30,140 nt of DNA from a virus (lineage: Duplodnaviria; Caudoviricetes). Under the pieces are notes generated by a model, which searched no databases, was not told the DNA's origin, and was given only the letters and a program-made list of their open reading frames with translations. The stretch lies in the IMG/VR virus record IMGVR_UViG_3300011335_000497, positions 1-30,140 of that record. The stretch is one strand, 5' to 3'. A program made the position numbers and the translations under genes. This document shows positions 444 to 30,140 of this stretch, piece after piece. Every line of letters starts with the position of its first letter. The stretch's first letter is position 1.

Positions 444-548
444 TTAAATATTAAAAATTAAATGAACAACTACGCGAGCGATAAAATACGACCCGCAAAC
501 TCCTGCGAAATAAATTTGATACTTTTGTTTTGATAAAAATTTTTTCAT
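444..548 (-). CDS. Small early membrane protein (34 aa)
   Basis: MKKFLSKQKYQIYFAGVCGSYFIARVVVHLIFNI*. It has an A-rich start region, a hydrophobic C-terminal half and fills the gap between its neighbours. Confidence 0.65.
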   Translation of the reverse strand: MKKFLSKQKYQIYFAGVCGSYFIARVVVHLIFNI

Positions 549-569
549 AAAATTGATTTTTAAGTTAAT

Positions 570-595
570 GCGCGTTTAACAGTCGCGCCCCTGTT
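570..595 (-). other. Putative compact H-type RNA pseudoknot, intergenic
   Basis: Minus strand AACAG-GG-GCGCG-A-CTGTT-AAA-CGCGC forms two interleaved perfect 5-bp stems. Confidence 0.5.
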
Positions 596-599
596 TTAA

Positions 600-806
600 T
601 TAATCGTTGTCTTTAGGAATTTGCTTTGCAATTATTTTGAAATGCATTTCGGCATAATAAATAGATTCATCAATATTTGATGCCTCGTTTACGATAGCGT
701 TATATTGTTTCATTACCTCAGTAATTTCATTTTGAAGATTACAAATTGCTTCATAGAGTTTTGCTGACTCACTTCTTAATTCATCAATTTTTTGATGTTT
801 GCTCAT
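600..806 (-). CDS. First early gene, hypothetical coiled-coil protein
   Basis: 68 aa ORF directly downstream of a TAnnTTTG promoter, with heptad-like periodicity. Confidence 0.7.
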   Translation of the reverse strand: MSKHQKIDELRSESAKLYEAICNLQNEITEVMKQYNAIVNEASNIDESIYYAEMHFKIIAKQIPKDND

Positions 807-835
807 AATTTTAAATTTTAAGTTATTTGTTGGGT

Positions 836-865
836 CAAATATATAAATACATTTTAATTATGCAA
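836..865 (-). promoter_or_regulatory. Bacteroidetes-type early promoter
   Basis: -7 box TATATTTG (843..836) and TTG at 865..863 with a 19 nt spacer, upstream of ATG 806. Confidence 0.75.
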
Positions 866-888
866 CACAATTTAATAAAAAGCATTTA

Positions 889-907
889 ATTTATATTAAT
901 TCTAAAT
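889..907. promoter_or_regulatory. Fur-box-like 19-bp imperfect palindrome
   Basis: Minus strand ATTTAGAATTAATATAAAT is 17/19 identical to ATTTAGAATTATTCTAAAT, which I recall as the Riemerella/Flavobacteriaceae Fur box. Confidence 0.55.
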
Positions 908-930
908 AGCATTATGCGGCAAAAAAACGT

Positions 931-938
931 TAACTTTG
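931..938 (+). promoter_or_regulatory. Plus-strand -7 promoter element
   Basis: TAACTTTG matches TAnnTTTG. No clear -33 TTG. Confidence 0.55.
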
Positions 939-943
939 TACAA

Positions 944-1014
944 CGGCTCTCATAATTCCGTTTTTTTTTAAGTGAAAGGACGGTCGGCAATTTATTTTGT
1001 CGTCCGTTTTTTTT
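944..1014 (+). ncRNA. Putative ~70 nt antisense small RNA with intrinsic terminator
   Basis: Follows TAACTTTG. The 5' half is CTCTCATAATTCCGTTTTTTTTTAAGTG. The 3' hairpin ACGG-T-CGGCAA/TTGTCG-T-CCGT (980-1007) has a G-U pair valid only on the plus strand and is followed by T7. Confidence 0.6.
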
Positions 1015-1018
1015 GCAT

Positions 1019-1042
1019 AAAAAAACCGCCTATTAAGCGGTT
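1019..1042 (-). terminator. Intrinsic terminator ending minus-strand late transcription
   Basis: AACCGC-TTAATAG-GCGGTT followed by a T tract on the minus strand. Confidence 0.8.
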
Positions 1043-1089
1043 AAAAATTAGCAGTTCAACTTTAGAAGGGTTGCGCTTTTTTTTATTTT

Positions 1090-1097
1090 CAAATGTA
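1090..1097 (-). promoter_or_regulatory. Minus-strand -7 element with no downstream ORF
   Basis: TACATTTG in the intergenic DNA, ~50 nt before the terminator. Confidence 0.4.
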
Positions 1098-1119
1098 ACA
1101 AATTAAATTTTTCCCTACA

Positions 1120-1293
1120 TTATTTGCTCAATTTATGAGCAAACATTTTTATGATTGTAGTAGGTTTAATAAACTTGCAAATCAATCGCAAAATAAAACC
1201 GGCATTTGTTGTTGATGCACTTTCAGCATATTTTTGTGCTGATTCATCCAATGCAAATTTAATTGGTTCTGGAATTCTGTCTAAATCTCTCAT
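1120..1293 (-). CDS. Small lysis-cassette protein with cationic amphipathic C-terminus (57 aa; start revised from 1428)
   Basis: ATG 1293 follows the endolysin stop and an A-rich leader. The protein ends GFILRLICKFIKPTTIIKMFAHKLSK. Confidence 0.6.
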   Translation of the reverse strand: MRDLDRIPEPIKFALDESAQKYAESASTTNAGFILRLICKFIKPTTIIKMFAHKLSK

Positions 1294-1309
1294 GCTAATT
1301 TTTTTTATG

Positions 1310-1774
1310 TTATTTAAAATTTTGGTAAATAGTTCGTCCATTTTCTTTTTTTGCTTTAAGTATTTGGCCTCTGTTTTTTTTGCTTGAAAATGAAACGTGT
1401 AACCAGTCCGGTTCTTTATCCGTTCCAAACTCCCAAATCAATTGGTCAAACTTCAAGTTGGTTTTTATGTAATTGAATACCTCTGCATTGGTAGGTTTAT
1501 TCTTACCCATATCAATATCCATTGCTTGACCGGAACAATGTTGGCTTGTTATCGAGCCTCCTATGGCATTATTTAATGGAATACCACGAAACATACTTGA
1601 AACAAAAATAGGTTTCTTAAAATGCTCCCTAATTGGCTCAAATACGTTTTCTGCTAATACTTTCATATTTTCAATTACTGATAGGTTTGGATTGTTGTTT
1701 ACAATACCAAGTTTATCAGCAGTATCTGAATGCGTACATTCTTCAAATGTTAAGTGTTTACTTATTTGTGTCAT
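1310..1774 (-). CDS. Endolysin, peptidase M15 family
   Basis: SSMFR...N..IGGS.TSQHCSGQAMD and WLHVSF Zn-ligand motifs (H, D, H). Confidence 0.9.
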   Translation of the reverse strand: MTQISKHLTFEECTHSDTADKLGIVNNNPNLSVIENMKVLAENVFEPIREHFKKPIFVSSMFRGIPLNNAIGGSITSQHCSGQAMDIDMGKNKPTNAEVFNYIKTNLKFDQLIWEFGTDKEPDWLHVSFSSKKNRGQILKAKKENGRTIYQNFK

Positions 1775-1928
1775 CTTTTTTGTTTAATAGTTTATATATC
1801 ATTATGATAGTGTATATGATGGATAGCATTAGCAAGAACAATCTCATAGAATTTTCAATGTTGGTAAAAGACAACCCGAAAATTGTTCCATTTACTGCGT
1901 ATAATTTTATCTGGTCTGGGTGTATCAT
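1758..1928 (-). CDS. Putative holin (56 aa)
   Basis: Not in the track. MIHPDQIKLYAVNGTIFGLSFTNIENSMRLFLLMLSIIYTIIMIYKLLNKKDDTNK* has hydrophobic segments and a charged tail, and overlaps the endolysin start. Confidence 0.7.
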   Translation of the reverse strand: MIHPDQIKLYAVNGTIFGLSFTNIENSMRLFLLMLSIIYTIIMIYKLLNKKDDTNK

Positions 1929-2179
1929 ATGGTATTTCGTATTTCATTTCTCATATCCAACACATCTTGTGGTATTGGTTTTCCAGTTTCAATGAATCGA
2001 ACAACATACCAATCTGTTTGCAATAGTTGTTGATATGCTCTTTGTTTCAATTCAAATTTATCGTCAATTTCAACAACCTCATCTATTTCAATTGTTTCAA
2101 ATTCAATTCCTTTTGGTATTAAATTAATATCAGTAGTTTCAGTTATTGAATTTCCAATTGTGTATCTATATCCTACCAT
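1925..2179 (-). CDS. Tail fibre assembly chaperone-like protein
   Basis: LLQTDWYVVRFIETGKPIPQDV..MR.EIR motif, directly after the fibre gene. Confidence 0.6.
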   Translation of the reverse strand: MVGYRYTIGNSITETTDINLIPKGIEFETIEIDEVVEIDDKFELKQRAYQQLLQTDWYVVRFIETGKPIPQDVLDMRNEIRNTI

Positions 2180-2181
2180 TT

Positions 2182-3633
2182 TTATCTTTGATTTGTAAAA
2201 GTTTGTGCCATTCCTATGTAATCAACATATACATTTCTGTTAGTAGTTCCCGCAGTTTTTGTAAAAACTATTTTAGGGCTTCCGCCGTTTATTCCTACGC
2301 CGGTTGTATGCGAAGCAACTAATGTGCCGTTGATGTAAAAATCAACTCCGGTATTATTAGCATTAACCTCTATTCTTAATCTATACCAAACTGATGCGCC
2401 TACTGCAATTCCGGTATCTGTATTTGTTCTTGTAGTTCCATTAAATGTACAACATTTCCAATTGGGTGAAGCCGCACCTCCATTTGTTGATGTACCACCC
2501 TCATCATATATAAATTGATAGCAAGTAGTTGTGTTGACTGCTATTGACGATGAATATCCAACGTGGAGTAAAAACCTTTCACCAGATGTTGATAGTGTTT
2601 CAACATTTATATAAGTTTCAAAAATTACCTTTCCATTACCAAAAAATGTTCCCGCTGCATTATTATACGCTCCAACACGAATTACACATTGTGAACCGGG
2701 ATTTGCATTTGATGACATTGCCACAACACCTTGTTGGTAGTTTCTATTTGGAAAAGTATTATTGCTTGTTATAGTTCCAGCACCAGCACTTATTCTTGTA
2801 CTAACTCCCCAACCTTCTGTTGTTGAATTCAATGAGTCACCTAAAAAATCCTCCCAAAATATAAATCCTTTTTTTGAATAAAAATCAAATAATTCCTCTT
2901 GCGGTGTATATCCAAGAACATTTGCTATTGTTTTATTCTTCCAAAGGGATGTTGCAGTTTCAAAAAATAACCCATCATTGTTGCTTGGTGTTTGTGCCGC
3001 TACATCGTGTATCTCATCCAATTCATATCCGTTTTGAATACGATATACAATTGTACCATTTGTTGGTGATGTTCTAACTACCTTTCCAATATAAACAATG
3101 TGATTTGGCGCATAAGGTTTAACCCTTGTAATATAACCAGCCGTTGTTGGACTCAAATAGATTGTATCACCATCAACCAAAGTATCTGATGTAAATGGGT
3201 TTGTAGCACTTGACCTTGTGTCCAAGTTATCAATAGTTCCAATGGTGCAAACATATCCATCTGCGTTGTTTGCTATGTCAGCAACAACAACCCCAAAAGT
3301 TCCGGCTGATGTTGCCTCGGAATTTGCTTGTGCTTTGACAAAATTTGGTAGGTTACCGGTAGAACCGGATATATACACAATAGTACCCTTATACAAAGTA
3401 ACACCGGTTGAATTTCGGCCTTGCGTATTCATTTGAGTTGCTGCACCACCACTAGGCAAAGTAGCCAAAGTACCATCACCACGCACATATTGACTGATTG
3501 TTCCCGCGGGTATGTCGTATTTGGTTGTGTCAAGGTCTTGAAAATTATCATTGCAAATGTCAAATGAATCACGAATTGTATTACCGGTATTATCATTTGG
3601 AGCAGAACCTATATTAATTGTTGTTATTGGCAT
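2182..3633 (-). CDS. Tail fibre / receptor-binding protein
   Basis: N-terminal INIG.APNDNTGNTIRDSF motif (T4 gp9/gp10-like), a Gly/Thr-rich beta middle and a C-terminal ConA/LamG-like WYRLRIEV...VDFYINGTLVASH. Confidence 0.7.
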   Translation of the reverse strand: MPITTINIGSAPNDNTGNTIRDSFDICNDNFQDLDTTKYDIPAGTISQYVRGDGTLATLPSGGAATQMNTQGRNSTGVTLYKGTIVYISGSTGNLPNFVKAQANSEATSAGTFGVVVADIANNADGYVCTIGTIDNLDTRSSATNPFTSDTLVDGDTIYLSPTTAGYITRVKPYAPNHIVYIGKVVRTSPTNGTIVYRIQNGYELDEIHDVAAQTPSNNDGLFFETATSLWKNKTIANVLGYTPQEELFDFYSKKGFIFWEDFLGDSLNSTTEGWGVSTRISAGAGTITSNNTFPNRNYQQGVVAMSSNANPGSQCVIRVGAYNNAAGTFFGNGKVIFETYINVETLSTSGERFLLHVGYSSSIAVNTTTCYQFIYDEGGTSTNGGAASPNWKCCTFNGTTRTNTDTGIAVGASVWYRLRIEVNANNTGVDFYINGTLVASHTTGVGINGGSPKIVFTKTAGTTNRNVYVDYIGMAQTFTNQR

Positions 3634-8598: not shown

Positions 8599-8979
8599 TT
8601 ATACGACTTTAGCGTAAATGTTAACTGATACCAAATAACTTGGTGTTGTACCACTTAGCAAATAAGTCATTGTGGTTGTATTGTCTTTTGGTACCAAATT
8701 TGTGCTTATATCAGTAATCACTCCATAAGCAGTTACGGTTTTTGAAGCAATAGTAAAATCCGCACTTAACAACGTACTGATTGCAGTATTTGTAGCGGTA
8801 ACAATAGCACTCATTGAAGCAGATGCAGTAGAGGCAGCAGTGCCACTAAAGGCAATTGTTATAACTCTACTATTTACATAATTAAAATCAGTAACTGCGG
8901 CAACAACTGGCGGTGTATATCCGCTTGGAAGTCTGTCGGCAGACAAACCATTTTGAGTTCCATTTAGTGTTAAAGCCAT
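8599..8979 (-). CDS. Putative minor virion/decoration protein
   Basis: Thr/Ser/Ala-rich 126 aa ORF in the head cluster. Confidence 0.45.
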   Translation of the reverse strand: MALTLNGTQNGLSADRLPSGYTPPVVAAVTDFNYVNSRVITIAFSGTAASTASASMSAIVTATNTAISTLLSADFTIASKTVTAYGVITDISTNLVPKDNTTTMTYLLSGTTPSYLVSVNIYAKVV

Positions 8980-19314: not shown

Positions 19315-20498
19315 TATTTCCAATCGTTAGTTACATCAACTCCGTTACGTTTAATCGTTAAAGTAGGGTCTAATGTAATCATTCGCTTTACAATTACATC
19401 GCAGTATTTAGGGTCAAGTTCCATTCCGTAACATTTTCGCTTAAGTTGGTGGGATGCTACCATTGTACTTCCGCTTCCAAGAAATACATCTAACACAACG
19501 TCCCCTTGCTTTGATGAGTTTTCCAATGGTTTACAACACAAAGGGATTGGTTTCATTGTTGGGTGTTCTTCAGAACGGCTTGGTCTTTCTATGTCCCAAA
19601 CAGTTGTCTGCTTTCTATCTCCATACCATTGATGAGATGCCCCCTCTAACCATCCATAAATACAAGGTTCGTGTTTCCAATGATAGTCAGAACGCCCAAA
19701 TGTTGAATTATTTTTATTCCATACAATGTATGATTTAAATAAAAATCCTGCATTTAAGAATTGCTGAATAAAATTGTGTGTTTCCGTTGATGCGTGCCAT
19801 ACATAAATCGCCCCGCCTTTTTTCAGTGCCGTTGATATTGTAGTGTAGACATCATATAAAAACTTAGGAAAATCATCCAACTTGTCGTTTGCTATTTTTT
19901 CTCTTTTTTTGCTTCCACCTTCGTAGTCAATATTGTATAGTGGGTCTGTATGACACATATCAGCAAGTTCCCCATCCATCAACTTTGCAACCGCATCACT
20001 ATCCGTTGAATCACCACACAACAACCGATGCTCTCCAATCTCATACAAATCTCCTAAAACGGTTATAGGATTTTCGGGTGGTGTTGTATCAAAATCATCT
20101 TCGGTTGCTTCGAGCACTTCATCAACTTCAAATGATGGAACATCTAATCCCCAAGCATCTAACTGCTCAACCTCCCATTCATTTGCTAACATATCCCAAT
20201 CCCATTCGCCACCGCTTACGTTGTCCTTTATTAAGAACTCTCTTTGCTGCTCCTCTGTTAAATTGTCCGCCACTATGATAGGTATTTCTTTTAATCCTGC
20301 TTCTTTACAGGCCTTATAACGCATATTGCCACCAAGTATAATCATATCTTTATTGACTACAATAGGTCTAATATTAAGCATTTCAGGAAAGTCTTTAATA
20401 GACTGAACCAATTTCTTGAATTTGTCATCCTTGATTAACCTCGGGTTGTTTGGGTTGACTTTGATTTGTGTAATTTTTAATTGTATTGTTTGGCTCAT
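19314..20498 (-). CDS. ParB-N domain fused to N4/N6 DNA methyltransferase
   Basis: NP.NPR, RPIVV and LGGNMR in the ParB domain; HRLLCGDST, DPLY (variant motif IV), HPTMKP and DVFLGSGST (motif I). Confidence 0.9.
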   Translation of the reverse strand: MSQTIQLKITQIKVNPNNPRLIKDDKFKKLVQSIKDFPEMLNIRPIVVNKDMIILGGNMRYKACKEAGLKEIPIIVADNLTEEQQREFLIKDNVSGGEWDWDMLANEWEVEQLDAWGLDVPSFEVDEVLEATEDDFDTTPPENPITVLGDLYEIGEHRLLCGDSTDSDAVAKLMDGELADMCHTDPLYNIDYEGGSKKREKIANDKLDDFPKFLYDVYTTISTALKKGGAIYVWHASTETHNFIQQFLNAGFLFKSYIVWNKNNSTFGRSDYHWKHEPCIYGWLEGASHQWYGDRKQTTVWDIERPSRSEEHPTMKPIPLCCKPLENSSKQGDVVLDVFLGSGSTMVASHQLKRKCYGMELDPKYCDVIVKRMITLDPTLTIKRNGVDVTNDWK

Positions 20499-20707
20499 AA
20501 TTTTACAAATGCTTCGTTAATTTCATCTATGTATAATTGAATAACCGTTGGCGTACATTTGCAAGGATAGTTTACTTCGTGTTCAAATAACCTTGCGTGT
20601 ATTTCGCAAATCATTTTGTATTCATCATTTTCCAAATAATTCCTTGGTGTTTCTCTAAATTTATCCCAATAGATAAAATCATCGGTTAGCATTTTAATGT
20701 TTGGCAT
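20495..20707 (-). CDS. Hypothetical protein with CxC motif
   Basis: 70 aa ORF overlapping its neighbours; H..LF.H...YPCKC. Confidence 0.6.
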   Translation of the reverse strand: MPNIKMLTDDFIYWDKFRETPRNYLENDEYKMICEIHARLFEHEVNYPCKCTPTVIQLYIDEINEAFVKL

Positions 20708-22330: not shown

Positions 22331-22429
22331 TAGTCAGGACAGGATTCGAACCTGTAATCAACTCTTTTTGCGCCAAGATAAAATCTCGGGGTTGTAATCA
22401 ACTGCGTCTACCAATTCCGCCACCTGACT
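22331..22429 (-). ncRNA. tRNA-like RNA (Leu-type body) without a canonical anticodon arm
   Basis: Acceptor AGTCAGG/CCTGACT, D arm GCGGAATTGGTAGACGC, T arm ACAGG-TTCGAAT-CCTGT; no encoded CCA. Confidence 0.75.
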
Positions 22430-22762: not shown

Positions 22763-22882
22763 TTATTTTATTTTTAGTGTTATTCCCCAAAAGATAAACC
22801 CAATCATTATTGACTTATCTCGAAATGACAAATCAAATCCAAAAACTATTCCGTTAAAATCCCGATCAAATGTTATTGCCAT
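22763..22882 (-). CDS. Small hydrophobic protein (39 aa)
   Basis: MAITFDRDFNGIVFGFDLSFRDKSIMIGFIFWGITLKIK* fills the gap. Confidence 0.5.
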   Translation of the reverse strand: MAITFDRDFNGIVFGFDLSFRDKSIMIGFIFWGITLKIK

Positions 22883-22884
22883 AA

Positions 22885-23106
22885 TTATATTTTTTTATCG
22901 ATGTGAATTAAGAAACTGATTTTTCTTGTTATTGTTGGGTACTTTTCTACAAGATATAAAGCCAATTTATCTTTTATAGCAATGTCAAGTTTACCAACAT
23001 TAAATTCTGCGTAAGTATGTATTTTATGACCTGAAAAAAGTTTAAGTCGTTGTAAATGCTTTGGCAATTCCGATAATTTAATGACTGACCTGGTTATTTT
23101 TCTCAT
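22885..23106 (-). CDS. Hypothetical basic protein
   Basis: 73 aa ORF, packed. Confidence 0.6.
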   Translation of the reverse strand: MRKITRSVIKLSELPKHLQRLKLFSGHKIHTYAEFNVGKLDIAIKDKLALYLVEKYPTITRKISFLIHIDKKI

Positions 23107-23321: not shown

Positions 23322-23688
23322 TGAATAGCGTTTTAATGATTTTTTGGAATAAATTTAATTTCTTTACAGGTTGAGGCAATTCCGGTTCAATTGTTTCAAT
23401 TTTCTTTTCAATTAAATCTTCTTTTTTGTTCGAGGACAATTCTCTTGAGATTTGCAAAACTTGAAATGCTAATTCAGGCGAATATTTTTTTAATAAAAGA
23501 AAGTGCTGATTATGGGGCGTGCCTATATTTTCTATGATTCGAAGTTTAACCAAAGACGTAAAGAAATTTTTATTGATCCTGTACTCCCTTCGTAAATCTG
23601 TAAAACTAACCTTTGCGCCGTGTTCAATAGCGTGCAAAGTAATTTTCAATACTTGTTCGTACTTTTTTAAAGTTTCGCTTTTTTCCAT
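23308..23688 (-). CDS. Hypothetical protein (possible winged helix)
   Basis: 126 aa ORF, packed. Confidence 0.6.
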   Translation of the reverse strand: MEKSETLKKYEQVLKITLHAIEHGAKVSFTDLRREYRINKNFFTSLVKLRIIENIGTPHNQHFLLLKKYSPELAFQVLQISRELSSNKKEDLIEKKIETIEPELPQPVKKLNLFQKIIKTLFNGVI

Positions 23689-23708
23689 TTTTTTAAGTTT
23701 TTAAGTGA

Positions 23709-23966
23709 TTAAATAAATTTTTTAATTGTTATGCTTTTTACTTTGTTGTTGTTTATGCAATACAAAAATATTTCTTTTGTTGCGAAATTGTAAAACGGTC
23801 TAAAATCGTTTTCGTTAATTTTTACATTTTCAAAGAAAGTTCCGTCGTCTCTTTTATAAACTTCATTGCCAATGTTTAAAAACGTTCCTGTTATTCTTGA
23901 ATTTTTAGAAATTGAATTTACTTCGGTAATTGCTTTTAAAATTTCAATTGTTGTGTTTGCTTTCAT
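23709..23966 (-). CDS. Hypothetical protein (start revised to ATG 23966)
   Basis: AATTATG start 17 nt after a promoter element. Confidence 0.6.
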   Translation of the reverse strand: MKANTTIEILKAITEVNSISKNSRITGTFLNIGNEVYKRDDGTFFENVKINENDFRPFYNFATKEIFLYCINNNKVKSITIKKFI

Positions 23967-23983
23967 AATTTTTATTTTTTTGT

Positions 23984-23991
23984 CAAAGATA
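23984..23991 (-). promoter_or_regulatory. Host-type -7 element
   Basis: TATCTTTG in an AT-rich intergenic gap. Confidence 0.6.
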
Positions 23992-25272: not shown

Positions 25273-25649
25273 TATATAAAAAACTTAAAATTTGCAACAA
25301 TTTTTCTGTTTTCGTCAAATTTAAAATAACCCATTTCTAAACCCTTTGCAAAGTATTTTTGTTTTTTATCGTTGGCAATTCTGTATTGCAATTCTTTGCG
25401 TTCCTCTGGGTCGCTTATGTATTGAAAAAAAGAATATGAATTGGTTGGGTTGTATATTTTTTTAATCAATCCCAAGTCTTCTAATTCAGATAATCTGGCC
25501 GAACACGTTTGATGCTTCCAACCTTTTAAAATAAAGTGTCCAAGTGTTAAAGGTTGTTTTGATATTTCCAACAATATTTTTGCGCTGTCGCTTTTTGCTT
25601 TGCCTGACGTAATTTGATAAATTAAAGCGTCGATTTTATTTGATTTCAT
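25272..25649 (-). CDS. Winged-helix-like hypothetical protein
   Basis: HQT.SARLSELEDLGLI. Confidence 0.6.
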   Translation of the reverse strand: MKSNKIDALIYQITSGKAKSDSAKILLEISKQPLTLGHFILKGWKHQTCSARLSELEDLGLIKKIYNPTNSYSFFQYISDPEERKELQYRIANDKKQKYFAKGLEMGYFKFDENRKIVANFKFFI

Positions 25650-25660
25650 AATTTTTATTT

Positions 25661-26545
25661 TTAAAAGTTAGGTTTATTTTTATTGTTAAATATCTGTTCA
25701 ATTTCTTGTTTTGAAAGTGATTCGTCAATTACGCAAGGCAGCCAATCGGAATTGACTTCAAAGGCGAAATTTTCAAACGGTGGGTTTCTACTGTATTCCG
25801 AAGTTACCAAAACGGCGTCGTCGTCCTTTTCTACAAATACTACCGTTTCGGCTTTTTTCAATACTGCCGACCCCAAATGCCCTGTTGGTTTTTTGCTGCC
25901 AAAATTCCTGTGAAGCACCGTAATGATGTGACAATTTTCGTTCCCGCTCCATTCCAAAAGTTTTTGCGCAACTTCGTTCGAGGCTTCCAGGTTGTTCACG
26001 TCGTTTACTAAATCGGCAACCCCGTCAATGATCAATAATCCGATATTGCCTTTGTACTGGCTTTCGTTAAAAATCCAATCAATAAACTTAAAACGTTCCG
26101 ATGCCGATAAGGTACGAAGCGCAAACGGTTTGTAATTTTTTGGGTTTGTCCCTACCATTTCGGCAACCCTTCGGAAAACGCGTTGGGCTTGATATTCGCT
26201 TTGCTCCGTGTCAATATCAATAACCCATTTATTGCCGACGTTATGTCCTTTAATTTCGAAACTGTATTCGTTTGAATTTCCGCCAATATAACAAGCCGTT
26301 ATTAAAGATTTTAAAAAAGTTTTCTTTGACTTTGACGCCCCGACAATACAGGAAAAATCCCCATAACTTCCAAACGGTATTGGATAGTCATTGCCTTTGT
26401 ATTTACTTACCCCGATACTTATTGCAACCGGTTGAGGTTTCAAAACTTTGTCGATGTCAACAAATTGCAAATCGTGAATTTTTGTAAAATCAAAATACTG
26501 CTTTGGCGGTTCGTTTTTCAACTCAATTTTTGGCAATTCAATCAT
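25661..26545 (-). CDS. RecA/AAA_25-type ATPase, putative replicative helicase
   Basis: Walker A variant GASKSKKT, DTEQ, Walker B LLIIDG, VLH and GHLGS...KKAET. Confidence 0.8.
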   Translation of the reverse strand: MIELPKIELKNEPPKQYFDFTKIHDLQFVDIDKVLKPQPVAISIGVSKYKGNDYPIPFGSYGDFSCIVGASKSKKTFLKSLITACYIGGNSNEYSFEIKGHNVGNKWVIDIDTEQSEYQAQRVFRRVAEMVGTNPKNYKPFALRTLSASERFKFIDWIFNESQYKGNIGLLIIDGVADLVNDVNNLEASNEVAQKLLEWSGNENCHIITVLHRNFGSKKPTGHLGSAVLKKAETVVFVEKDDDAVLVTSEYSRNPPFENFAFEVNSDWLPCVIDESLSKQEIEQIFNNKNKPNF

Positions 26546-26552
26546 AATTTTA

Positions 26553-27056
26553 TTAATTTAAGTTTTTGTAGTGGTTTATTGCTTCCGAAATTTGACTATT
26601 TAGCCCTTTTTCTACCTTTTCCGACGTCCAAATACCTAAAAGGTGATTTTGTATGTCTTCAAAATTATCTTTAATTAAAACGGCGTCTTTGTCTTTTTGT
26701 TCTTGCGTCATAACTAACGGGTGCAAATTACAAAGGCCAAGCGATTTTGTAAGGGAATTATATTCGATATTGTTTAATTTGTCTTTGAATTGTTCGTACA
26801 ACTGTATTAACGGGGTTTTTAAAATTTCGTGCAATCTTTTTTGTGCAAATTTTAAGTTTTGATAAAATTGCAATTCGTTGATAAAACAATAAACGTACAT
26901 TTTTGCAAACAACCTGTTTTGTTGTAGTTCCTGCGCCTTTTGTCGGTTAATCCATTTCGCAACAACTGTGACGGCTTCGATGTCGTTTTGGTTTGGTGTG
27001 TGCGTTCCATTAGATACCCTCCACACAATACGTTGCATTGCCTTTTCGATTGTCAT
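26553..27056 (-). CDS. Hypothetical protein
   Basis: 167 aa ORF in the replication cluster. Confidence 0.7.
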   Translation of the reverse strand: MTIEKAMQRIVWRVSNGTHTPNQNDIEAVTVVAKWINRQKAQELQQNRLFAKMYVYCFINELQFYQNLKFAQKRLHEILKTPLIQLYEQFKDKLNNIEYNSLTKSLGLCNLHPLVMTQEQKDKDAVLIKDNFEDIQNHLLGIWTSEKVEKGLNSQISEAINHYKNLN

Positions 27057-28085: not shown

Positions 28086-28727
28086 TTATTTATCTTCCGG
28101 AACTTGCTGAATTTGATCTTCTTCAATTCCCGGAAACGGTGATGCCTCAATAGTTCGCGAAATTGCTTCCATGTATTCTGGCGTCTTTACGATTTTTTCT
28201 TTTATAAAATCGGGCAAACTATCGAATTTTATTCCGTCGAAGTTTTCAAAGTCAAACACAAATGTTTCGTTTACCTGCGCCGGGCAATCCAATCCTCTTG
28301 GCATTGGGGAAACGCTGCCGATTTCCTGATAAATTTTGGTCGGGTCTTTTGCACCTGGCTTGTGAATAATGTTCAACATACAGGGAACGCCTAATAGTTT
28401 TGTAATGTCGAACGCTTCAGCTTCTTCGTCCGAAAAGGCTTTGCCCCTCCAACTTTGTAAATCTTTGCGCAAATTGGCTTTATCTGACAAACTCAATGTG
28501 TATTCCTTATCGATAACGCAAGGTTGTTCGCCTTTTTCAGGATTGAAAATCTTTAGTTCCGTTGGAAGCTCCCAACCGATTCGGACTTTGTGCATTTGCT
28601 TTTTTACTCCCAAAAATTCTTCTTCGCACGTTCCGATGTCTATCATTTTATAACAACGGGCAACGTAATTCCCCGCCATAATTAATTCTCTTTCGAACGT
28701 TTCAGTTTTTTTTGCTATGATTGCCAT
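28086..28727 (-). CDS. Putative ssDNA-binding/replication protein
   Basis: G.YVARC..MIDIGT, YTLSL.DKANLRKDL.SWRG..F and LLG.PC.L.I.H, with an acidic tail. Confidence 0.65.
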   Translation of the reverse strand: MAIIAKKTETFERELIMAGNYVARCYKMIDIGTCEEEFLGVKKQMHKVRIGWELPTELKIFNPEKGEQPCVIDKEYTLSLSDKANLRKDLQSWRGKAFSDEEAEAFDITKLLGVPCMLNIIHKPGAKDPTKIYQEIGSVSPMPRGLDCPAQVNETFVFDFENFDGIKFDSLPDFIKEKIVKTPEYMEAISRTIEASPFPGIEEDQIQQVPEDK

Positions 28728-28750
28728 AATTTCTAATTTTTAAGTGTTTA

Positions 28751-29194
28751 TTAAAATTTTACTGTGATTGAACTTTTACGCGGGGTTGTTCCAACTTTTG
28801 GAACGTCGTTTCCATACGCGTCGATTATTGTTTGCTTTTGCGCCAATTTTAAAAGTTCGACGCGTGCTTCCAGGTCGGCTTTCAATTGGTTGTAAATTTC
28901 GTCTTCTGAATAATTTACCGTTGCACCGCCGTTTGTATAATTAAATTCAACGCCGTTTTTGTCGGTCTTTTCCAAAATGTCGATTTTGTCCCGGAACGCT
29001 GCGTCGGCGGAATTGACAACTTCTTTAAGTCTGACAATGTTTGTCCAAACTTGCAACGGATCAACTTCGCCTTTTTCCAATAGGTCGTCAACCATGCGTT
29101 TGCCTGTTAAAATTGCTTCTTTTTTTGTGAAAGTTGGCGCGTACATTGTTGCAACTTGTTCCGCCTTAAATTCGAAATAAAGGTCTTTGCTCAT
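28751..29194 (-). CDS. Hypothetical early protein
   Basis: 147 aa helical ORF preceding the SSB-like gene. Confidence 0.7.
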   Translation of the reverse strand: MSKDLYFEFKAEQVATMYAPTFTKKEAILTGKRMVDDLLEKGEVDPLQVWTNIVRLKEVVNSADAAFRDKIDILEKTDKNGVEFNYTNGGATVNYSEDEIYNQLKADLEARVELLKLAQKQTIIDAYGNDVPKVGTTPRKSSITVKF

Positions 29195-29214
29195 AATTTT
29201 AATTTTTAAAGTGA

Positions 29215-29352
29215 TTAATTTGTTTCTGAAATTTCGGGGTTTTCGACTTCGATTTCCTCGATGTCTTCGTAATCGTGGTAGTAATCGTCGTCGCTTTGAT
29301 TTGCTGGGTTGTTGGAATTAAATGTTCCCTCGATGTAGTCGTCTAAAGTCAT
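29215..29352 (-). CDS. Small highly acidic protein (45 aa)
   Basis: Not in the track. MTLDDYIEGTFNSNNPANQSDDDYYHDYEDIEEIEVENPEISETN*, with an AATTATG start. Confidence 0.65.
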   Translation of the reverse strand: MTLDDYIEGTFNSNNPANQSDDDYYHDYEDIEEIEVENPEISETN

Positions 29353-29524
29353 AATTTTGATTTTTTAAGTTAGGCGAAGTTAATCTTTTTTTTTGATTAC
29401 ACAACACAATTAAGTCATTTTTTTTATCTAAAATTAATAAATTAAAAGCCAATTGACCTATTGCGTTTAAATCTTGGTATCTTTTACCTTTCAACATCCA
29501 ATAACCCTTTTTTAACTTTAACAT
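29318..29524 (-). CDS. Hypothetical basic protein
   Basis: 68 aa ORF overlapping both neighbours. Confidence 0.5.
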   Translation of the reverse strand: MLKLKKGYWMLKGKRYQDLNAIGQLAFNLLILDKKNDLIVLCNQKKRLTSPNLKNQNYDFRRLHRGNI

Positions 29525-29676
29525 TGGATTGCGTTTTTTAAAAGTTTGTAAGCGTTTTCGCGGCCTCCAACGGCATTGATTTGGTTTTGCGAGAAAACCA
29601 ATTGAAAACGTTGATTTTTTACGTCCAGCGGGTCGATTGGTTTCGCCCCGCGCTTTTTTTGAGTTTGTTGTTTCAT
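29518..29676 (-). CDS. Small basic putative DNA-binding protein (52 aa)
   Basis: MKQQTQKKRGAKPIDPLDVKNQRFQLVFSQNQINAVGGRENAYKLLKNAIQC*; TAATG coupling. Confidence 0.6.
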   Translation of the reverse strand: MKQQTQKKRGAKPIDPLDVKNQRFQLVFSQNQINAVGGRENAYKLLKNAIQC

Positions 29677-29939
29677 TATTTAATTGAGTTTTTAAGTTCC
29701 GACATTACTTTTATAAACGCGTCGTTGAATTCTTCTTCCGTGCTTGTAATTGCATCAATATTAAGAGGCAATTCAGCATAAGTTTTTTGAATTGCAATAT
29801 TGTCCGAACTCTGGGTTACGCAAATACAATCATCTTTAGAAATTACTTTAAATTGGTGGCAGTATGTTTTATAAAACGCTGGCAATTCGACTTGTATTTC
29901 ATTGACTAATTCTGTTTTTTGTTTGATTGTGATTACCAT
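29676..29939 (-). CDS. Hypothetical protein (start revised to ATG 29939)
   Basis: ATG lies 4 nt after the stop of the Ala-repeat gene. Confidence 0.65.
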   Translation of the reverse strand: MVITIKQKTELVNEIQVELPAFYKTYCHQFKVISKDDCICVTQSSDNIAIQKTYAELPLNIDAITSTEEEFNDAFIKVMSELKNSIK

Positions 29940-29943
29940 TTTT

Positions 29944-30140
29944 TTAAATATTAAATTTTTCAATTGATATGCATTTGCGAACTATGTCCGCCGTTTGTTG
30001 TTCGTTTTGTTTTCTGACAGCAGCAGCATCAGCAGCAGCAGCAGCAGTAGCAGCAGCAGCAGAACAAGCATCAGCAGCAGCAGCAGTAGCAGTATCAGCA
30101 GCAGACCAAGCATCAGCAGCAGCAGACCAAGCAGCAGCAG
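29944..30140 (-). CDS. Ala-repeat protein, 3' part
   Basis: ...AAAWSAAADAWSAADTATAAAADACSAAAATAAAAADAAAVRKQNEQQTADIVRKCISIEKFNI*, in frame with 433..1. Confidence 0.8.
   Translation of the reverse strand, partial: AAAWSAAADAWSAADTATAAAADACSAAAATAAAAADAAAVRKQNEQQTADIVRKCISIEKFNI
30018..30140. repeat. Degenerate (CAG)n/(GCT)n repeat, right part
   Basis: Same units as 1..157. Confidence 0.95.

Follow-up and report, generated by a model that had tools for sequence, protein, structure and literature searches.

A conserved candidate antisense RNA complementary to many early gene start regions of its own phage

The junction between the late and early genes

The window, the whole stretch of DNA that was analysed, is an entire phage record of 30,140 bases with 34.6% G+C. 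All plausible genes are on the minus strand. The late block encodes terminase, portal, protease, tape measure and endolysin proteins. The early block encodes NinG, NinB, an AAA_25 ATPase, a sigma-like protein, a ParB-methylase and many small proteins without names. Genes were called with our own script, with ten starts added and three moved by hand in the window, and the early and late classes are defined by gene position on these calls. Judged by the DUF6712 protein, the closest cultured phages are the Nonlabens phages P12024L/S (33% identity); a blastn search of window positions 500-2200 against cultured phages gave no match. This kinship, the TAnnTTTG promoters and the A-rich starts together point to a Bacteroidota host, probably a member of the Flavobacteriales. 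A CAGCAG-type repeat is present at 1-160 and 30018-30140, within the gene starting at 433, where it encodes Ala-rich repeats, and the circle of the phage was opened inside it. A tRNA-like Rfam match at 22331-22429 on the minus strand (42.8 bits, above the gathering score) was not called by ARAGORN.

A promoter-seed-terminator unit occupies 931-1014 on the plus strand, where the lysis genes meet the first early gene, with all coordinates as given in the initial annotation. That annotation described it as the sole plus-strand transcription unit. A promoter-to-terminator scan gave one other plus-strand unit, a weak one inside a gene (10099, -8.4). The -7 box of a host-type promoter (Bacteroidota primary sigma), TAACTTTG, is found at 931-938 and follows the consensus TAnnTTTG described for Bacteroidota (PMC7366714). 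The box is kept in 11/11 closest relatives and is accompanied by a TTG 17-19 bases upstream in 10 of them; the window's own unit promoter has no TTG at this distance. The late genes have a different motif, GCAAA-N14-CGTTA(T/A)A, which precedes 74/425 late versus 6/478 early starts and occurs in the window as GCAAA-N14-CGTTATA before starts 17715, 10360, 9545 and 6477. It is likely read by the 182-aa sigma-like protein of the phage (21058-21606). This motif does not fit the unit promoter (spacing 4 versus about 14).

The predicted small RNA is approximately 70-75 bases long (942-1014, plus strand), with the 5' end placed from the promoter. The fold z is -4.3, and 0/200 shuffles were equally good. 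A 5' hairpin at 942-962 (AACGG/CCGTT), absent from the initial annotation, places the anti-AUG seed CATAATT (951-957) in an 11-base loop, CTCTCATAATT. It is followed at 963-976 by a single-stranded second seed, TTTTTTTAAGTGAA, the complement of an ACTT(T)AAAA tag that lies 17-21 bases before early AUGs. The intrinsic terminator (976-1014) consists of a hairpin with G-U pairs at 976-1011 and a U tract. It was correctly described as strand-specific, because 976-1016 folds at -16.6 kcal/mol on the plus strand versus -7.1 on the minus strand. Back to back with it, a convergent minus-strand terminator (1014-1042) closes the late/lysis transcript. On the other side is a divergent early promoter on the minus strand (836-865), with TATATTTG at 836-843 and a TTG 19 bases upstream. 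On the minus strand, TACATTTG at 1090-1097 precedes the late terminator and is altered in the X13 contig of a relative.

The unit was aligned between the window and nine of its 11 closest relatives, two duplicates being left out. The anti-AUG loop TCTCATAAT, the second seed TTTTTTTAAGTGAA and TTTTTTTAAGTGAAA are invariant, and 97% of cells pair. Three core pairs of the 5' hairpin are kept in 10/10 sequences, with one G-C to U-A double change. The terminator hairpin is paired in 100% of alignment cells, with invariant G-U pairs and two double changes. All three two-sided changes in the stems come from one sequence (L547). The G-U pairs of the stems hold on one strand only.

The unit thus has a promoter, an intrinsic terminator and no conserved reading frame, as expected of a stand-alone small RNA gene. 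It is intergenic, overlaps no target and pairs imperfectly, which sets it apart from cis-encoded antisense RNAs of the Sar, OOP and aQ kind. Searches with Rfam families, Flavo-1 and other Bacteroidota motifs included, gave no match to the unit in the window or its relatives. The C4 model (RF01695) matched neither the window (E up to 5), nor seven relatives (E up to 1), nor eight more (gathering score).

Predicted pairing with early start regions

The seed, conserved and exposed, is complementary to the start regions of several mRNAs whose genes lie away from the unit. The initial annotation had placed CATAATT over the ATG of the genes at 806, 20498, 22882, 23966, 25649, 26545, 28727, 29194 and 29352, and all nine were recovered. 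The extension of this match to CTCATAATT is present at 806, 20498 and 29194 and fails at the other six. The second-block matches at 816-823, 29361-70, 28737-46 and 26557-63 and a bulged match at 29205 were also as described. Three block-2 targets had been missed, namely 23688, 548 and 29676.

All predicted target regions are on the minus strand. Both blocks match at the first early gene (ATG 806; 802-823), gene 29352 (29349-29370), the conserved 147-aa gene 29194 (29190-29213), the 213-aa gene 28727 (28725-28746) and the AAA_25 ATPase gene 26545 (26542-26563). Gene 25649 (25646-25670) combines the anti-AUG seed with a looser block 2. The anti-AUG seed matches at gene 23966 (23963-23985) and the 39-aa gene 22882 (22880-22900), and it is the only match at the ParB-methylase gene 20498 (20494-20504), a weak predicted target. 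Block 2 matches at gene 548 (546-565), gene 29676 (29674-29697) and gene 23688 (23686-23707), which has two copies of the tag and the best predicted duplex (-17.8). The targets had been assigned to an early/replication programme. The replication part is only partly borne out, since only the AAA_25 protein and the ParB-methylase have names among the tagged genes. Atlas look-ups gave no name for the 213-aa or the 147-aa protein. In X13 contig 9 the first early gene (window 601-803) is swapped for another 280-base sequence, and the tagged start region is kept from 803 on.

The claim that late starts are free of the seed was borne out. AATTATG is found at 9/31 early versus 0/21 late starts of the window (Fisher p 0.007); the two groups do not differ in A content (0.50 and 0.51). 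ACTT(T)AAA precedes 8/31 early and 2/21 late starts, and both tags occur together at five of the 31 early starts. CATAATT is also present at six non-start places, one of them over an ATG inside the late gene 9545, in frame and ten codons from its start.

The five best early duplexes have a mean of -16.2 kcal/mol, compared with -11.4 for late genes and -11.2 +/- 1.6 for shuffled RNA (n=60), in line with the expectation that pairing would exceed these controls. Shuffled leaders of the window (n=100) gave -13.6 +/- 1.1 kcal/mol, with 2/100 as good as the real ones, and in seven other genomes 0/100 were as good. The early caveat that the matches might be compositional is thereby largely answered, also in view of the equal A content of early and late starts. 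The duplexes are rich in A-U and of modest energy (-13 to -18 kcal/mol). A plain whole-genome duplex scan, which ignores accessibility, is dominated by G+C-rich coding sites; only one of the 15 best sites in the window is an early start, and there are 4, 1, 4, 4 and 3 among the 15 best in five other genomes, with about 1.5% expected. Accessibility-corrected energies (20 C) separate early starts from random sites, with medians of -7.5 for early starts, -4.5 for late starts and -1.6 for random coding sites (n=120).

To assess pairing with the host, 12 Flavobacteriales genomes that may not include the phage's own host served as proxies, with a sample of 800 kb that covered ribosomal-protein regions. 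Of 736 starts, none has CACTAAAA (the tag of most relatives, described below), 16 have ACTT(T)AAA, 35 have AATTATG and none has both window tags. The median proxy-host duplex (-8.6) is like that of late starts (-8.1) and not like that of early starts (-10.7). Among 610 starts from the lower-G+C genomes, 21 (3.4%) equal the window's fifth target in pairing, which makes side-targets in the host possible. The initial caveat that host mRNAs could be the real targets is weakened but keeps some force.

Relatives and the joint change of tag and anti-tag

The 147-aa early protein was used to search for relatives of the window type. The search gave 61 loci, of which 59 were examined (L593 and L597 were left out). 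The predicted conservation of the seed was found in all 11 closest relatives (86-95% identity in this protein), which carry the unit 1.0-1.7 kb upstream of the 147-aa gene and always inverted as in the window. The X13 contig likewise has an inverted unit, with four changes in it. Among 48 more distant loci (45-70% identity), many of which stop short of the junction, a look-alike unit was seen only in L549, L580 and L589. Five loci (L590-L592, L594 and L596) have a promoter-to-terminator unit 450-820 bases before the 147-aa gene, and GTCAGGA near its 5' end is complementary to the 5' arm of the terminator, in an attenuator-like arrangement. Four whole records of the window type (G076-G079) have no DUF6712. 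The window is a mosaic that has its early block (83-94% identical proteins) in common with these four, whose structural block differs and whose 147-aa gene keeps the tag. The window thus combines their early block with a different structural block, and the unit moves with the early one.

A second set of relatives was defined by DUF6712. In this close clade (at least 71% identity, window included) the unit precedes the first early gene in 21/29 records. The majority type consists of TAnnTTTG, mostly CAT(A/T), mostly TTTTAGTGA, and a terminator. Apart from the window, all of these (20 of the 21) have the unit on the gene strand, where it nevertheless remains complementary to start regions; in G001 this complementarity extends over 19 bases without mismatch. 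Because the unit is antisense to the starts in either orientation, the seed is tied to the unit's own promoter and terminator and not to the genome strand. Eight records have no scored unit, and in seven of these the sequence stops short of the expected place or starts at about that point. The eighth, G038, covers the place, and its gap before the early genes (approximately 8750-8830) holds, by eye, a variant unit with a non-consensus promoter, a different tag and a seed complementary to the record's own AATAGAG leaders.

Real RNA pairs better than shuffled RNA at z <= -2.6 in 19/21 genomes. Early pairing exceeds late pairing at p < 0.05 in 17/21 and does not in the other four. In G006 and G020 pairing was not clearly above shuffles, and G020 favoured foreign RNA.

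The tag that corresponds to the majority RNA is CACTAAAA, present within 30 bases before 84/478 early and 0/425 late starts. It is mostly found at -15 to -19, overlapping TAAAA, a common start element in Flavobacterium (PMC6028130). Covariation of seed and targets had been proposed as a check, and it takes the form of a reciprocal tag switch between lineages that matches each lineage's RNA. The early starts of G076-G079, whose RNA reads UUUUAAGUG, have ACTT(T)AAA at 25/111 and CACTAAAA at 1/111 (late starts, ACTT(T)AAA 4/90). In the 20 majority genomes the early starts have ACTT(T)AAA at 10/447 and CACTAAAA at 83/447. A third pair is seen in G019 and G022, which are without CACTAAAA and have the tag ACCAAAAC and an RNA that reads GUUUUGGU.

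Own and foreign RNAs were compared in a 20 x 20 matrix, from which G007 was dropped (under 15 early genes). After centring, own RNA was better in 19/20 genomes, a result reached in 0/100,000 permutations and inflated by kinship. In raw duplex energy own RNA is first in only 3/20 columns. Ten disjoint nearest pairs, chosen by identity of the sigma-like protein, had own RNA better in 8/10 (sign test p 0.055, Wilcoxon p 0.024). The joint change of tag and anti-tag suggests that one RNA would likely silence early-gene translation as a group.

Distant records (n=11, DUF6712 57-67%; G023-G031, G039 and G040) and P12024L have a promoter, a U-rich stretch and a terminator at the same junction. Only 2/11 reached a pairing z of -3, P12024L gave -0.3 and most were not above shuffles, and these records were not counted as family. 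The P12024L unit (L480; NC_018272 9826-9897) has an 11-base match to the gp25 leader. A looser script found 34 distinct unit cores over all fetched loci, one of them unchecked as a relative. A first scan with the window's exact seed returned 74 loci, apparently chance matches. Further pattern scans gave true units in 5/21, 4/8 and 7/66 loci, all from the same phage group, the rest being chance. Approximately 4300 stored stretches match marker patterns of this aquatic Bacteroidota phage family.

Other RNA-like elements were observed in these phages. A second conserved promoter-to-terminator RNA follows the lysis genes and has constant ATCAAT..CCTATTGATTTAGG flanking a variable 8-mer. The 8-mer is complementary (6-8 bases in 6/6 parsed) to the apical part of the terminator hairpin, suggestive of a covarying pseudoknot or kissing loop. 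In gene-strand coordinates this RNA is at G006 1072, G007 17525, G014 154, G017 8728, G019 3874, G020 4779, G022 13329, G033 17994 and G010 28898, and it is also present in L386, L003 and L007. It has no Rfam match in L003 or L007 and was not seen in the window. A third conserved promoter-to-terminator unit of approximately 115 bases directly follows the endolysin region (G019 2649, G022 12103, G035 18429). A sequence resembling the hammerhead type III ribozyme lies directly before the first early gene's tag in L004 (5667-5722) and L006 (5679-5735), and its scores of 33.9 and 37.2 bits fall short of the gathering score (48.5).

Proposed function, alternatives and known systems

On balance we consider it probable that 931-1014 holds a conserved non-coding gene and that the 70-base RNA predicted from it would pair in trans with the tag at approximately ten early start regions, likely blocking their translation together. 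The initial proposal of one RNA antisense to the phage's own early starts thus stands with regard to predicted pairing, conservation and covariation, and silencing remains a prediction from the sequence. Under this model the RNA would be transcribed by host RNA polymerase as soon as infection begins. The loop CUCUCAUAAUU would contact AAUUAUG first, and UUUUAAGUG would then cover ACUU(U)AAAA. This tag overlaps the A-rich element at which ribosomes load in Bacteroidota; their loading would be blocked, and the mRNA may decay. A host-type promoter alone gives no delay. Since the unit lacks the late-promoter motif, synthesis of the RNA probably begins with infection itself, and its effect would come from build-up, as a delayed negative feedback in which the RNA accumulates while early mRNAs turn over. 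Early protein output would be capped and ribosomes freed for the late genes, which have another promoter and no tag. An RNA would then be doing the job of T4 RegA and RegB.

The same pairing could serve another purpose, with the RNA acting as repressor of a non-integrated carrier state or excluding phages with the same tag, and tag variants defining immunity groups. A host-type promoter could stay active in a resident phage, no protein repressor was found, tags are lineage-specific with own RNA better than foreign, and RNA-based exclusion is known from STnc6030 and sas (PMC12197685). However, tyrosine integrase (PF00589) and HTH_3 repressor (PF01381) were absent from 30/30 relatives, 21 of them at least 90% complete, and no antirepressor, repressor or integrase was matched among 55 window proteins. 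The DUF6712 scan of bacterial genomes gave three loci, all on short contigs of metagenome bins, the majority pattern occurred in 0/401 Flavobacteriales genomes searched, and many foreign RNAs equal own RNA in raw energy, which implies poor specificity for immunity groups. The lack of integrase and HTH_3 repressor in the 30 relatives favours a lytic timer, and immunity or a carrier state seems unlikely, though worth keeping in view. It is rather improbable that the tag acts without RNA pairing, as a site for a phage or host protein (in DNA or mRNA) or as a leader module that was duplicated, with the inverted copy as an extra site or a relic kept alike by recombination. Covariation alone would fit a shared protein site or gene conversion too, and leaders persist while the genes behind them change, as in the X13 contig. 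A promoter lies within 90 bases before 30/144 tagged versus 30/400 untagged starts, and G-U-compatible mismatches at 57 target sites number 19 versus 16.4 expected, with 34 versus 29.9 in the mirror class. On the other hand the copy is always antisense, in a gene-free promoter-terminator unit and in both genome orientations, it sits in the loop of a covarying hairpin, and the block spacing differs between RNA and targets in a way that a duplex would tolerate.

Host mRNAs could instead be the main targets, a general Bacteroidota start region being blocked for host shut-off with the phage matches as a by-product. The TAAAA start element (PMC6028130) is found 6-47 times per genome sample, AATTATG is at 35/736 proxy-host starts, and the 3.4% of 610 starts that pair like the window's fifth target would amount to approximately 100 genes per genome. 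We regard this as quite improbable given that CACTAAAA and the two window tags together are each at 0/736 starts, versus 5/31 early starts for the latter, that the proxy-host median resembles late and not early genes, and that the seed tracks the phage's own tag changes. The sequence would also serve well as a start region, and with a 7-codon frame present on the window's gene strand it could be the start of an opposite-strand mini-gene and not an antisense seed. This candidate was rejected as very improbable, because frames over the 21 units vary from 1 to 37 codons, have no common sequence and are missing in two, and because in 20 genomes the strand opposes all genes and the promoter and terminator face the other way. 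Finally, A-rich starts and a U-rich spacer could match by composition. Both partners are A-U rich and pairing in the distant relatives is not above shuffles, but chance is scarcely credible against equal A content, leader shuffles as good in 2/100 (window) and 0/100 (seven others), and CACTAAAA at 84/478 early versus 0/425 late starts. It is largely refuted for the close clade.

C4 RNA has two pairing blocks. C4 (P1/P7, RF01695) and Sar (P22) are likewise small phage RNAs that pair with the phage's own mRNA and lower expression (PMC8198154, PMC2864571, PMC12197685). C4 and Sar act on a single operon (ant) in temperate phages, beside protein repressors, whereas here approximately ten separate early starts are predicted and neither repressor nor integrase was found. 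Among the 55 window proteins, and for the HTH_3 and tyrosine integrase families in the 30 relatives, no antirepressor operon plus protein repressor of the C4 kind was found. As far as the cited parts of these sources describe them, C4, Sar and OOP each act on single operons, and the unit RNA is not one of them (PMC8198154, PMC2864571, PMC12197685). No description of this RNA was found in the literature, closed papers and supplements being outside the scope; an entry in a table of predicted structured RNAs is possible.

In mechanism the candidate is closer to GcvB of enteric bacteria, which is trans-encoded with its own promoter and terminator and uses one seed against many mRNAs via a C/A-rich element before the start (PMC3879156). 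GibS of Bacteroides thetaiotaomicron has two adjacent seeds over a start codon and works in a Bacteroidota cell without Hfq (PMC7366714). No sequence likeness of the unit RNA to either was found in Rfam. GcvB and GibS are regulators of host metabolism, whereas here a single 30-kb phage genome carries both the RNA and its predicted targets, and the two vary jointly from lineage to lineage. With regard to target region the likeness is to T4 RegA, which covers the AUG region of approximately 30 phage mRNAs at sites such as AAAAUUAUG, and T4 RegB inactivates early mRNAs, freeing ribosomes (PMC3014915). However, both are proteins and not RNA, and the RegA sites are without a clear common tag in the cited parts of PMC3014915.

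Closest in layout is the start-associated sequence (SAS) of cluster K mycobacteriophages, a private tag just before non-structural starts that is rare in the host and, in the cited parts of the sources, has no explained function (PMC3203893, PMC11373665). Four K1 phages have one inverted SAS copy away from gene starts (PMC3203893). The layout is similar here, with an asymmetric tag before non-structural starts, rare in the proxy host, and one inverted copy. The sequence and host are unrelated, and the inverted SAS copy is not in a promoter-terminator unit. SAS has a 13-base consensus with a Shine-Dalgarno core 3-9 bases before the start, whereas the present tags are A-rich and mostly 15-19 bases before the AUG. 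In Adephagia (JF704105 58,682-58,694; L598) and Anaya (JF704106 59,870; L601) the inverted SAS reads as an anti-SAS and, on the transcribed strand, falls within the loop of a hairpin that is predicted to be long; Adephagia has 16 sense copies in the 44.6 kb examined. No inverted copy was found in the examined parts of Pixie and TM4. Late transcription in Adephagia is reported to start in the gap that holds the inverted SAS (PMC11373665). We treat the parallel as a lead and not as support. If true, a hairpin-loop anti-SAS at the head of the K1 late transcript would give SAS a function. Whether the inverted SAS of Adephagia and Anaya is an antisense repressor becomes a testable form of a 15-year-old question, in cultured phages with published RNA-seq. 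A broader reading, which we offer tentatively as a possibility somewhat against the odds, is an RNA-only repressor-operator in which private start tags and a mirror RNA run the early regulon where other phages would use a protein repressor, drifting specificity groups may exclude kin, and the same logic arose independently in the K1 SAS hairpin loop.

We conclude that the unit is real and conserved and specifies a candidate antisense RNA, whose predicted pairing with early start regions of the same phage has comparative support. In the literature covered, the targets of phage antisense RNAs are a single gene or operon, or genes of the host, and where a phage controls its early translation as a group the known agents are proteins (T4 RegA, RegB). 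If correct, the present model would add a new way to time the lytic programme or exclude kin in a large aquatic Bacteroidota phage family. It would also offer a short, swappable RNA-tag pair for gene silencing in Bacteroidota, which have no Shine-Dalgarno pairing and no Hfq. The type of mechanism, a trans-acting antisense RNA, is already known; the candidate novelty is one RNA set against many of a phage's own early starts.
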